DNA of 34,747 bases from IMG/VR virus record IMGVR_UViG_2941446319_000001, one strand, 5' to 3'. The position numbers were made by a program, and so were the translations under genes. The notes beneath the pieces were generated by a model. The model saw only the letters and a program-made list of their open reading frames with translations. It searched no databases and was not told the DNA's origin. Of the stretch, positions 2,529-26,539 are shown one piece after another. The stretch is from an uncultured virus (IMG/VR IMGVR_UViG_2941446319_000001) (Duplodnaviria; Heunggongvirae; Uroviricota; Caudoviricetes). The stretch's first letter is position 1, and every line of letters starts with the position of its first letter.

Positions 2529-2557
2529 TTCTTCTCCGTCACCCCGGCACAGTTAAG

Positions 2558-2631
2558 CCTCGCTGACTGGGCTCGAACCAGCGTCCACCCGGGCCCAAGA
2601 GCCGGGCGCTCTACCACTGAGCTACAGCGAG
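2558..2631 (-). tRNA. tRNA-like RNA with a non-canonical 9-nt anticodon loop (CTT, Lys-like), no encoded CCA
   Basis: CTCGCTG-TA-GCTC-AGTGGTA-GAGC-G-CCCGG-CTCTTGGGC-CCGGG-TGGAC-GCTGG-TTCGAGC-CCAGT-CAGCGAG-G folds into a full cloverleaf with D and T-loop signatures. Confidence 0.75.
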
Positions 2632-24110: not shown

Positions 24111-24668
24111 CTAAGGGGTCAAAGAATCGGAGGGGGTGGCCGACGACTTGCCGTGGCGCGTCAGCAGGTCTTCGAGGTGGTCCAAGCGCTCGGACATCTC
24201 CGCGAAGTCAGTGGAGGTCTCCCGCCTGAGGGTCTTGATCTCGCTCTGGCGCTGCTCGTCGCGCTGCTCCAGGCGGCGGATCATCTGCGAGTGCTGGCGG
24301 AGATTCATCTCCAGCCCGTCCATCCGCTTGCGCTCGTCAGCCGTAAGGGCGGACCTGTTGGCGCTCGCGGCCTTGTCGACGGCCTTGCCGAGCTGGCGGC
24401 GGGACTTCTTGTGGTGGTGGCGGGCGAGCGCTTCGTGCTCGCGGGCCTCGATGACGCGATATCCCTCATTGCGGACGCTGACGACGGTCCTGTGGTCCTC
24501 GATCTCAAGCTGCCGGATGGCCCGGTAGATGGGGCTGCGGTCCTCGCGGAAGTCGCGCTTCAGGATGGCGTCGAGCTTCTCGTAGGTGAGGACCTTGCCG
24601 ACTTCCAGCGCGGCGAGTGCGTCGTACACGAGGACCCACTGGGCCCTGTCGCCCTTGATTTCAAACAT
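24111..24668 (-). CDS. wHTH + coiled-coil protein immediately downstream of the repeat array (putative accessory protein)
   Basis: MFEIKGD...LTYEKLDAIL...IYRAIRQLE...VRNEGYRV is winged-helix-like, followed by a long heptad region; SD GGAG at 24675-24678. Confidence 0.75.
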   Translation of the reverse strand: MFEIKGDRAQWVLVYDALAALEVGKVLTYEKLDAILKRDFREDRSPIYRAIRQLEIEDHRTVVSVRNEGYRVIEAREHEALARHHHKKSRRQLGKAVDKAASANRSALTADERKRMDGLEMNLRQHSQMIRRLEQRDEQRQSEIKTLRRETSTDFAEMSERLDHLEDLLTRHGKSSATPSDSLTP

Positions 24669-24693
24669 GCGAAACTCCAGGTAGAAGTGAAGA

Positions 24694-25885
24694 TCCCTGC
24701 CTTGCCGCGCCCATGGCGGCCTTGGACGGCCCAGCCACGCCTTGCCGCACCCAGATGAGCGGGCGCCGGAGAGTCGAACTCCAGCGATGAGCCGAACGCC
24801 CTGGTGAAACCCCTGCCTTGCCTCTCCCTGCCTTGCCGCGACATGCCGGGCCGAGCCATGCCGTGCTCGTGGGTGGCGCGGAGTCGAACCGCGCAGAAGA
24901 CCGTCCACCCGAATCCATGCCTCGCCAGGCCGTGCCAAGCCCGGCCTGAACCAGCCACGCCTCTGCACGCCCCACCAAGCCGCACACCCAATCGGGGGCG
25001 GTCCAGGGCTGAGGTGCTAGACCCCAACCCCAGACCGTCACCGGCACCACGCCCTGCCCGGCCGAACAAAACCGGACCATGCCCTGGCGCGCCACGCCCT
25101 GCGCCGCCGCACCAAACCGGACCACGCCTTGCCGTGCCGTGCGCTGTTGCTGCCCGGGGGCAGCGGAGGGCCGCGAGACAAGCTCGCGACCGACCGCCGT
25201 CACCGGCCCAAACCTCACCCAGCCCGACCCGGCCAAGCCGTTCCGCGCCCGAGATCGGCACGCCATGCCAAGCCAAGCCCGCTCGGAAGCGGGGGAAGAC
25301 CACGGAGCTAGTCCGTGATCGACCTCCGTCGCCGGAACCTTGCCCGGCCTCGCCACGCCCTGCCTAGCCCGTCCGCGCCCTGCCGAGTCGAGCCGAACCG
25401 AACCCCGAATTGGGGGCGGCGCGGGAGTCGAACCCGCGCTACGACCATTCGCCCACCCACGCCATGCCTTGCCATGCGGTGCCTTGCCCCTGCTTGCCAC
25501 GCCTTGCCCGGCCAAGCCCCAGAGCGCGGGTGCCGAGGGCTCGAACCTCGGAGCCTGCCAGCCACCCTCCAAGCCTTGCCAGACCCCGCCGAGCCCAGCC
25601 ATGCCGCTCCCGGCCCTGCCTTCGGCCCTGCCATGATGCGCGGGCGTCGGGGCCTCGAACCCCGAAGGCTGCCAGTCGCCCTCCATGCCACGCCGAGCCT
25701 TGCCGAACCGAACCACGCCTTGCCATGCCCTACCGGTCCTTGCCGCTCCGAGAGCGCGGATGGCCGGGGAGTCGAACCCCAGCTTGCGACCATCCATCCG
25801 TCCCTGCCCTGTCACGCCTCGCCGGGTCGAGCCCGGCCATGCAGCACCCAGACCGGCCAGGCCAAGCCCAACCACGCCCCGCCTT
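24694..25885 (-). ncRNA. array of ten (GGY-NN)n guide-like RNA units separated by nine hairpins (VIPR-like vrRNA array)
   Basis: 5-nt period with GGC/GGT anchors and variable dinucleotides. Tracts at 25799-25883, 25682-25749, 25568-25632, 25459-25518, 25335-25404, 25207-25281, 25044-25143, 24914-24986, 24810-24867 and 24694-24751. Hairpins lie between them. Confidence 0.88.
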
Positions 25886-25918
25886 GACAGGCTCTGAACA
25901 GTCCGGGAAGTAGGCATG

Positions 25919-26539
25919 TCAGATCTCGCTGACCTCAGTCGAGAACCTGCCGTACATGGTCCGGAAGTCGCCGAGTCCTTCCATCTCGCCGGCCAGGCGG
26001 GCGACCTCGCGGAACTCGTCGTACTCGATCGCCTTCGGGTCGACGATGACGTCCGCCTCGACCAGCCAGTCACGGAAGATCGGGCGGCACCGGTCGACCT
26101 TGTTCCGCTGGACCGTGACCGGGCGGATGTCGACGAACTCGGACTCGCCGCCGCCCCACAGGCCCTCGACGTCGCGCGGCCCCTTGTAGATGAGCGGCAG
26201 CATGAAGTCGGCGATGACCACGCCGCGCTCGATCTTCTTGCCCGCCTTGATCAGCCGCGCCCCGCCGATCAGCGACCGGAACAGGTTCTGGCCGGGCATG
26301 TACGGGCCGAGCTGCGGATCGAAGTACAGGGAGCCTTCGAACTCGACGCGGGCGACCTCAAGGCGGTCCTCGTCGGTCTTGGTCCGCTTGGAGTTGAGCG
26401 CCTTCAGCTTCTTCGCGTACGGGTTGAGCGGGCTCGCAAGCTGCACGTTATGGAGCAGCAGCGGGCGGGTGCCCGTGCAGGTCATGCGGATCTTCAAGGA
26501 CTTGCCCTTCGTTTCGTTGTCCACTTTGTTCGCGAACAT
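25919..26539 (-). CDS. stand-alone RAMP/Cas7-like RNA-binding protein (Vipr-like); alternative start TTG 26497
   Basis: N-terminal strand with TGTRPLLLH, central PYMPGQNLFRSL and C-terminal glycine loop GEMEGLGDFRTMYGRF give a RAMP (RRM) architecture. No other cas genes nearby. Confidence 0.8.
   Translation of the reverse strand: MFANKVDNETKGKSLKIRMTCTGTRPLLLHNVQLASPLNPYAKKLKALNSKRTKTDEDRLEVARVEFEGSLYFDPQLGPYMPGQNLFRSLIGGARLIKAGKKIERGVVIADFMLPLIYKGPRDVEGLWGGGESEFVDIRPVTVQRNKVDRCRPIFRDWLVEADVIVDPKAIEYDEFREVARLAGEMEGLGDFRTMYGRFSTEVSEI

Follow-up and report, generated by a model that had tools for sequence, protein, structure and literature searches.

The DNA considered here is a 34,747-nt stretch of phage-like sequence (IMG/VR record IMGVR_UViG_2941446319_000001; "the window" below, to which all positions refer unless a genome or contig is named). 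It occupies G000:C2:945578-980324 within a bacterial genome of 10.7 Mb, called G000 or the own genome in what follows, L-numbers being used for comparison loci and contigs; because it sits inside a bacterial genome, it is taken to be a prophage. Its gene content, by PHROG matches, includes SSB, primase/helicase, replication initiator, WhiB, C5 methylase, HNH, and Sak4-like ATPase genes, making up a phage-like replication or early region in which nearly all genes lie on the minus strand. Two of these minus-strand open reading frames (ORFs), encoding the proteins P0001 and P0002, flank 1.2 kb without a credible gene (Table 1). This interval is occupied by an array of pentamer repeats, interpreted here as guide RNAs (vrRNAs) of a Viral Interference Programmable Repeat (VIPR) system, for which the viral or proviral location is the expected one. 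The seventh repeat tract of the array, vrRNA 7 or guide 7, and the type of gene at which it appears to be aimed are the main subject of this analysis.

Table 1. Coordinates of the repeat array, its parts, and its flanking genes in the 34,747-nt window
Feature	Position	Strand	Remarks
Putative vipr gene P0001 (206 aa), RAMP-type protein	25919..26539	minus	just upstream of the array; PDB 36pp_D match
vrRNA array	24692..25897	minus	about ten GGYNN tracts of 10-20 units, structured tail after all but the last
tRNA-like minihelix tail after vrRNA 1 (acceptor-like stem and T-arm)	25754..25798	minus	
tRNA-like minihelix tail after vrRNA 2	25640..25684	minus	
tRNA-like minihelix tail after vrRNA 3	25524..25570	minus	42 nt 97.6% identical to intergenic elements of Likavirus Streptomyces phage
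tRNA-like minihelix tail after vrRNA 4	25409..25457	minus	weak Rfam tRNA-Sec match (16.6 bits, E 4.3)
Repeat tract of vrRNA 5	25335..25404	minus	14 units; target match 25/28
Repeat tract of vrRNA 7	25044..25143	minus	20 units, seventh of about ten tracts
3' tail of vrRNA 7	24986..25043	minus	long hairpin and small hairpin, not tRNA-like; RNAfold -35.6 kcal/mol, z -2.8 vs mononucleotide shuffles
tRNA-like minihelix tail after vrRNA 8	24866..24913	minus	part of an ARAGORN "tRNA-Ala(ggc)" call together with upstream repeats
tRNA-like minihelix tail after vrRNA 9	24756..24803	minus	
vrRNA 10 (last tract)	24692-24751	minus	no recognisable tail
Putative vap1-like accessory gene P0002 (185 aa)	24111..24668	minus	winged-helix-like N-terminal part, helical C-terminal part (sequence read by eye)

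A register-aware pentamer parse resolves the minus strand of the array into units of GGC or GGT followed by two variable bases, arranged in tracts that are separated by structured elements of 40-60 nt. Five successive GGCNN units, with at most one mismatch, match at 32 places in the window, 31 of them on the minus strand between 24729 and 25883; the expectation from 100 shuffles is 0.17. This strand is G-rich (the plus-strand GC skew of the array is -0.188). VIPR repeats are defined as tandem GGY/NN (YNNGG) pentamers of at least four units with variable NN, and about ten such tracts, each of 10-20 units, are present. No earlier-described Rfam family scores at its gathering threshold in the array. 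A reading of the tracts as coding for pentapeptide repeats was rejected, since TAG occurs inside units and the ORFs running through the tract are due to composition alone.

VIPR was described in 2026 in preprints on its discovery (10.64898/2026.04.26.720920), its structure by cryo-electron microscopy (cryo-EM; 10.64898/2026.04.26.720927), and its role in competition (10.64898/2026.10.15.759431). A VIPR locus has a gene for a Vipr protein, which belongs to the RAMPs and is related to Cas5/6/7, in most cases an accessory vap gene as well, and vrRNAs, each consisting of YNNGG repeats (9-16, as reported for the SUSP1 and Pseudomonas fulva clades) and a structured 3' tail; array architectures vary, and include arrays interspersed with hammerhead ribozymes (10.64898/2026.04.26.720920). 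One Vipr protomer sits on each repeat and sequesters GGY (VIPR preprints), while NN pairs with the target, of which one base, usually that at the wobble position, is skipped between successive pairs (10.64898/2026.04.26.720920; 10.64898/2026.10.15.759431). Small-RNA sequencing, co-purification, and reprogramming have been reported for this repeat type, and GGY substitutions abolish silencing (10.64898/2026.04.26.720920). Natural targets, called at an NN match of at least 80%, with no match to the self contig above that line (10.64898/2026.04.26.720920), include satellites, lysis-lysogeny regulators of prophages, and recombinases, the last being reported for SUSP1 (VIPR preprints).

The gene just upstream of the window's array appears to encode such a protein. 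In a phmmer search of PDB, residues 18-203 of P0001 match 36pp_D ("SUSP1 Vipr protein") at E 5.2e-34 with about 40% identity, and P0001 also matches phrog_4652 (E 2.1e-51). By hand count on the alignment, contact residues of SUSP1 Vipr are kept (H17 as H30, K33 as K46, R39 as R52, K88 as K101, R138 as the R of CRPIF), with D177/W178/R179 appearing as D/F/R and K82 as R95. Since this upstream gene is a homologue of SUSP1 vipr, the array is taken to be a VIPR vrRNA array. Several other explanations were dropped on the strength of the Vipr match: a sponge RNA like that of TRAP (trp RNA-binding attenuation protein), a G-rich R-loop origin, centromere- or iteron-like DNA repeats, and serial remnants of tRNA att sites.

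The gene downstream of the array, P0002, has a weak but specific resemblance to the gene that comes next after vipr in phage SUSP2 (BLASTP E 1e-5, 29% over 72 aa); it matches phrog_5926 (E 1.7e-9) and no Pfam family at E values up to 0.01. Its homologues adjoin vipr and GGCNN tracts in L012, L040, L042 (42% GC), and L084. In L042 there are tracts on both sides of the vap-like gene, and in the window vrRNA 10 leads straight into the ribosome-binding site and start codon of that gene, a layout found also in L012. The system would be type II-like, as judged solely by its likeness to SUSP1.

Vipr homologues were found by tblastn in 131 phage records of INPHARED, mostly of Felixounavirus and Suspvirus; a related-locus search with Vipr among viral contigs gave no relative. 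In IMG/VR, at least 138 stretches (L015-L152) match (GGCNN)6GGC exactly, with diverse NN, a local GC content from 0.36 to 0.73, and arrays of up to about 1.4 kb, and 37 among the 138 listed loci, from 32 contigs, have a Vipr homologue in their flank. In L063 and L119 the array spans the distance from the vipr stop codon to a gene with a RusA-like N-terminus (by eye), and in the Gordonia phages MakoManhole (L013) and Trine (L014) no array separates the vipr and vap-like genes, which abut or overlap. The same gene pair flanks a syntenic, similarly built array in a Streptosporangium sp. contig (L012), where the variable bases are others and the Vipr protein is 87% identical to that of the window. 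The window array has no guide in common with that of L012 (3580-4840): over at least 8 units, the NN identity of every pair stays below 60%, suggesting that guides turn over fast. The two arrays do have tail types in common, and in one two-hairpin tail a stretch of 33 nt is identical. Judged from sequence, the minus strand of tract 7 is almost certainly the guide part of a vrRNA in a VIPR system.

Support for a functioning array comes from another of its guides. All ten guides were scanned against the own genome at skips of 0-3 nt, and guide 5 matches at 25 of 28 positions (89%) at a skip of 1 only, skips of 0, 2, and 3 giving 20-21; none of 200 order-shuffled guides reaches 25, the maximum being 22. 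The site (G000:C24:73365-73406) is in frame, codon position 3 being skipped, in the HTH_7-coding part of a serine recombinase/resolvase gene. This gene lies on a separate contig of the genome and adjoins Mu-transposase/TniB/TniQ-like (tniA/B/Q-like) genes and a NACHT NTPase gene. Among 110 genomes of the genus, 5 contain the guide 5 pattern at up to 3 mismatches (4 of 109 besides the own genome), and none contains a reversed control. The other nine guides gave nothing above shuffles in the same genome at skips of 0-3. The guide 5 result independently supports a functional VIPR array directed against other mobile DNA, and its recombinase target echoes the recombinase targeting reported for SUSP1. 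A first-pass annotation, made by a model from the letters of the window, had proposed a gapped code in which the skipped base is the wobble position and which would resist synonymous escape; this is the published VIPR rule, and guide 5 follows it.

Tract 7 itself reads, in its NN from 5' to 3' of the RNA, AC AC AA GT CC TT GC GG AG GT GC AG AT CC TT TC CG AG GT GC. The corresponding plus-strand dinucleotides, extracted by script from the NNGCC pentamers, are GC AC CT CG GA AA GG AT CT GC AC CT CC GC AA GG AC TT GT GT, identical to the list from which the first-pass annotation had read, as codon positions 1 and 2, a GntR winged-helix motif. Sixteen of the 20 units have GGY on the minus strand, the exceptions being CGC, CGC, GCC, and TGT. 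The tract contains a near-duplication of part of itself: in their NN, units 4-10 match units 13-19 at 11 of 14 positions, and ATLxxKGx appears two times in the pseudo-peptide, so that some of the tract must have arisen by duplication. The half-to-half differences (CC to CG, GC to GA) give precisely the L-R-E that is conserved in the wings of the GntR family, which speaks for selection on the target reading and against drift.

Guide 7 was scored over its 20 dinucleotides (40 positions) in the 1-nt-skip pattern, with order-shuffled guides as the null. In the own genome, 12 sites score at least 26/40, compared with 5.16 +/- 2.40 sites in 150 order-shuffles, one of which reached 12. At eight of these 12 best sites the ORF piece contains PF00392, the GntR winged-helix family, above the Pfam cut-off (for one shuffled guide, none of 12); at the other four there are LtrA, an aspartyl protease, a radical SAM protein, and no family. 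The first-pass annotation had staked its reading on gntR genes matching better than shuffled patterns do, and at the level of the family the GntR motif is borne out by this count. The best own-genome site lies in a stand-alone winged-helix gene of 79 aa (G000:C9:307194-307433, or L154:9192-9431; PF00392 E 1.6e-18), whose neighbours are HNH, tape-measure/NlpC-P60-like, and primase-polymerase genes, and which on account of these neighbours seems to belong to another mobile element. Twenty-five database homologues of its protein share LR[DE]EG.L.TLPQKGTFV, for which the protein-level upper bound is 33/40. Some 440 bp past the right end of the window there is a further small GntR gene (G000:C2:980748-981014, plus strand; PF00392 E 1.1e-18), the product of which is 47% identical to the C9 protein. 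It scores 26/40, which fits the self-sparing described for other VIPR guides (VIPR preprints).

Outside this genome, exact 8-unit seeds of guide 7 match 45 and 14 stretches of IMG/VR, and the best of these over all 20 units are in four high-GC contigs at 31/40, reading RELRERGLVATLPAKGTFVV. One of the contigs (L245, 14.9 kb) is a temperate-phage fragment with genes for an amidase, an 82-aa GntR protein, a tyrosine integrase, HTH_3, and HTH_17; the GntR gene (L245:7490-7738; PF00392 E 3.4e-15) has the lysis genes on one side and the tyrosine integrase gene on the other. A search of metagenome contigs with 24 of the 40 positions fixed gave six stretches (L275-L280), which score 34, 32, 32, 31, 30, and 30 of 40. 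All six are in frame, with the skip at codon position 3, in a small GntR-like family (judged by translation). Three of them (L276 at 34/40, L278 and L279 at 32/40) thus reach the preprints' 80% line. For matches with the skip on codon position 3, then, guide 5 stands at 25/28 and guide 7 at 34/40 and 32/40 with seeding and at 31/40 without the fixed positions. The in-frame match to a gntR gene of a mobile element that had been predicted was therefore found, in the temperate-phage contig and, at 32-34/40, in metagenome contigs. The guide's footprint is the C-terminal, wing-coding end of the PF00392 winged-helix domain, and its best matches are stand-alone GntR-like regulators of about 80-95 aa. 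From sequence, a GntR target is supported at the family level and is not pinned to one sequence; rather likely, it is a small GntR-type regulator of another mobile element.

A number of observations weigh against this reading. The best own-genome score, 28/40 (70%), is equalled by 13% of shuffles, and the 30 loci of the genus closest to the C9 gene reach at most 28/40 at the DNA level. No near-perfect target came to light: the full pattern at 37/40 or better (at most 3 mismatches) is found in none of 110 genus genomes and none of 401 family genomes, and an exact 10-unit seed has no match in IMG/VR. The metagenome matches are seeded, with 16 of the 40 positions free (10 of these 16 matched in L276), and come without a shuffled-guide null. 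In L276 the 11 tail-distal units match at 22 of 22 positions and the nine tail-proximal units at 12 of 18; since assembly and unwinding run from the 3' tail towards the 5' end (10.64898/2026.04.26.720927), the mismatches sit where tail-end engagement would start, making L276 less likely as the exact target. The guide is itself unusual in its internal near-duplication, in its 20 units, beyond the reported range of 9-16, and in its four non-GGY units, given the effect of GGY substitutions on silencing. Finally, the vap1 homology is weak, and similarity to SUSP1 is the single source of the putative VIPR type. An index of sequencing runs lists no RNA dataset containing this stretch. The exact allele aimed at would lie outside the genomes searched.

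Several of these points would also be explained if tract 7 were a genuine vrRNA without a live target, either a guide in decay after duplication or one still taking shape, with the GntR reading left over from an old target or from the duplication. The non-GGY units (4 of 20), the agreement between units 4-10 and 13-19 (11 of 14 NN positions), the lack of a match at 37/40 or better in the 110 and 401 genomes, the best unseeded database match of 31/40, and the rapid turnover suggested by the comparison with L012, where no guide is shared at 60% or more, are all as such a history would predict. It does not account for the changes between the two halves falling exactly on the conserved L-R-E, nor for GntR genes at 8 of the 12 top genome sites and metagenome alleles at 80-85%; moreover, the genomes searched are species representatives, and the collections were covered up to a cap. 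A guide without a live target is accordingly thought unlikely, though it is the most credible of the alternatives considered here. Much less credible is a role within the own cell, in which guide 7 would act on the C9 gene (28/40) or on the prophage-adjacent one (26/40) as a regulator of lysis-lysogeny or of a co-resident element, tolerating mismatches of 30-35%. Both GntR genes do belong to the own genome and count among its 12 best sites, guide 5 likewise matches a gene of that genome, and the word "mismatch" does not occur in the text of the cryo-EM preprint (10.64898/2026.04.26.720927). Such scores fall short of the published target line, above which no self-contig matches were reported (10.64898/2026.04.26.720920); a score of 28/40 is within reach of 13% of shuffled guides, and the external alleles (31-34/40) are better than the internal ones.

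It is also conceivable that the tracts act as DNA, as arrays of double-stranded binding sites (centromere-, iteron-, or silencer-like) for the winged-helix-like product of the neighbouring gene, in which case the codon reading would be meaningless. P0002 does look DNA-binding and recurs beside such tracts, as in L042 where it is flanked by them. This idea has to contend with strand-specific structured tails that show compensatory changes, with a Vipr homologue as the adjacent gene, with the small-RNA sequencing, co-purification, and reprogramming published for the same repeat type (10.64898/2026.04.26.720920), and with guide 5, whose skip-1-specific target has no place in it, and we regard it as highly improbable.

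The explanation that we favour overall, and consider likely, is that tract 7 is the guide of vrRNA 7 in a type II-like VIPR system and is aimed at small GntR regulators. In the published systems, a thumb of Vipr flips out every third target base and the filament forms an R-loop triplex that blocks transcription (VIPR preprints). By analogy, Vipr protomers would assemble on vrRNA 7, one per repeat, sequestering GGY; the exposed NN would pair with one strand of the double-stranded target, every third base of which would be flipped out by the thumb; and the resulting Vipr-vrRNA filament would block transcription as an R-loop triplex. The prophage might in this way silence the small GntR regulator of competing temperate phages, while its own neighbouring small GntR gene, at 26/40, would be spared. 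Reading codon positions 1 and 2 alone would make synonymous escape useless to the target.

The structured elements between the tracts are of two kinds. Six of the ten tracts are followed by tRNA-like minihelices, built from a 5-bp acceptor-like stem, a linker of 11-12 nt, and a 6-bp T-stem with a GUUCGAnnC loop. An alignment of 19 of these (six from the window, four from L012, and nine from Streptomyces phage Caliburn, two Caliburn T-loop matches within coding sequence being excluded) has pairing in all 209 cells (11 base pairs, 100%) and compensatory changes in 8 of the 11 pairs; covariation is 0.562, while shuffles give 0.152 and slid partners no more than 0.10. These compensatory changes reflect RNA-level selection on the minus strand. 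Three further tails, after vrRNA 5, 6, and 7, are two-hairpin elements, and with four in L012 they make seven copies having a GRYGACRG start and a two-hairpin outline in common. Conserved structured 3' tails, six minihelices and three two-hairpin elements, are thus present in the array. Minihelix-type tails also follow GGCNN tracts in L040, L148, L018, L045, and L142.

The minihelices were rejected as tRNAs, having neither D nor anticodon arms, and none scores at the gathering threshold of Rfam RF00005. At a relaxed threshold the Rfam matches in the array are to tRNA-Sec (20.9 and 16.6 bits, with a cut-off of 47) and mascRNA (17.5 bits), and the 92-nt "tRNA-Ala" called by ARAGORN arises by absorbing repeats. 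In Caliburn (L001, NC_028892.1 42701-49742), at least nine minihelices of the form GGGUG-linker-T-arm-CACCC-ACUGGG occupy the narrow intervals between protein-coding genes; one shares 97.6% identity with window positions 25528-25569 over 42 nt. No GGYNN tracts precede the Caliburn elements, which may be processing or terminator elements that punctuate operons, and the ten organism names listed for the 131 INPHARED records with a Vipr homologue include no Streptomyces phage. A literature search on intergenic tRNA-like elements of Streptomyces phages, or on GGC pentanucleotide repeats in bacteriophages, found nothing relevant. More tentatively, and with the odds somewhat against it, some VIPR loci (the window, L012, and five or more in IMG/VR with a GC content of 0.53-0.73) might have exchanged the pseudoknot tail for a mimic of the tRNA "top half", at which host tRNA processing (RNase P, RNase Z, and possibly the CCA-adding enzyme) would separate the polycistronic array into single vrRNAs and complete their 3' ends. 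If so, this would be a third, host-enzyme-dependent array architecture beside the tailed and the hammerhead-interspersed ones, and the occurrence of the minihelix in protein-coding operons of Likavirus Streptomyces phages would point to a general actinophage RNA-processing signal, borrowed by VIPR arrays. Elsewhere in the window, a tRNA gene at 2557-2631 (minus strand; Rfam 58.5 bits) is called by ARAGORN as "tRNA-???" with a four-base anticodon (cttg) and adjoins a 471-aa ORF without a Pfam match; this tRNA might serve as an attachment site or have an anticodon loop of 8 nt.

VIPR itself is already known; new relative to the text of the preprints are an actinobacterium as host, tails in the form of tRNA-like minihelices, and small GntR genes as probable targets. 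Described in Escherichia and Pseudomonas systems, the machinery and its wobble-skipping code appear here in a large-genome actinobacterium, and the code was recovered by the first-pass annotation from raw sequence alone. Candidate targets are a transposon resolvase gene (guide 5, at 89%) and small GntR regulators of temperate-phage lysogeny modules (guide 7, at up to 85%); should they be confirmed, actinomycete phages and transposons would join the mobile elements between which VIPR serves as a weapon. The tRNA-like tails suggest a route of guide-array processing that the preprint text does not contain, the word "tRNA" being absent from the main texts of all three preprints and from the supplementary PDF of the discovery preprint.

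The nearest comparison is with the type II VIPR systems of SUSP1, SUSP2, and a P. fulva prophage (10.64898/2026.04.26.720920; 10.64898/2026.04.26.720927). In common with these, the window has putative vipr and vap1-like genes, tailed GGY/NN vrRNAs, a phage or prophage location, a target aligned to the wobble position at a 1-nt skip (guide 5), and recombinases and mobile-element regulators as likely targets. It differs in its high-GC actinobacterial host, in tracts of up to 20 units, and in having about ten vrRNAs between vipr and vap, genes that abut in SUSP2 and the Gordonia phages. Its repeats are rich in GGC, while those of the SUSP1/SUSP2 type are rich in GGT, and its tails are tRNA-like minihelices or two-hairpin elements, while that of SUSP1 is a pseudoknot. 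With the hammerhead-interspersed arrays of types I and V (10.64898/2026.04.26.720920) it shares structured RNA between vrRNAs that could define their ends; those arrays cleave themselves, whereas an acceptor-stem/T-arm minihelix as separator would need host tRNA-processing enzymes.

More distantly, VIPR resembles the backbone of class 1 CRISPR (clustered regularly interspaced short palindromic repeats) systems, in which Cas7 assembles on the CRISPR RNA: in both, a RAMP/RRM protein polymerises on a guide and a thumb flips bases at a fixed period. The period in VIPR is 5 nt of guide to 3 nt of target, compared with 6 to 6 in class 1 CRISPR; the window has neither CRISPR repeats nor Cas1/Cas2, and no protospacer-adjacent motif is reported for VIPR in the preprint text. 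The repeat format also recalls that of TRAP. This protein binds (G/U)AG-NN repeats, one subunit per triplet, with variable 2-nt spacers and a 5-nt period. Its spacers, unlike the NN of VIPR, carry no information and read no target nucleic acid.

As to the targets, GntR-family Kor repressors, such as KorSA of pSAM2, control actinomycete plasmids and integrative and conjugative elements, and it was from these that the first-pass annotation had argued for a rival element. The genes matched by guide 7 have in common with them the PF00392 winged helix and a place in mobile elements. Full-length Kor repressors of plasmids or integrative and conjugative elements were not matched, in searches that did not include KorSA itself; the genes that do match encode proteins of about 80-95 aa consisting of the winged-helix domain alone, one of them in a phage lysogeny module.

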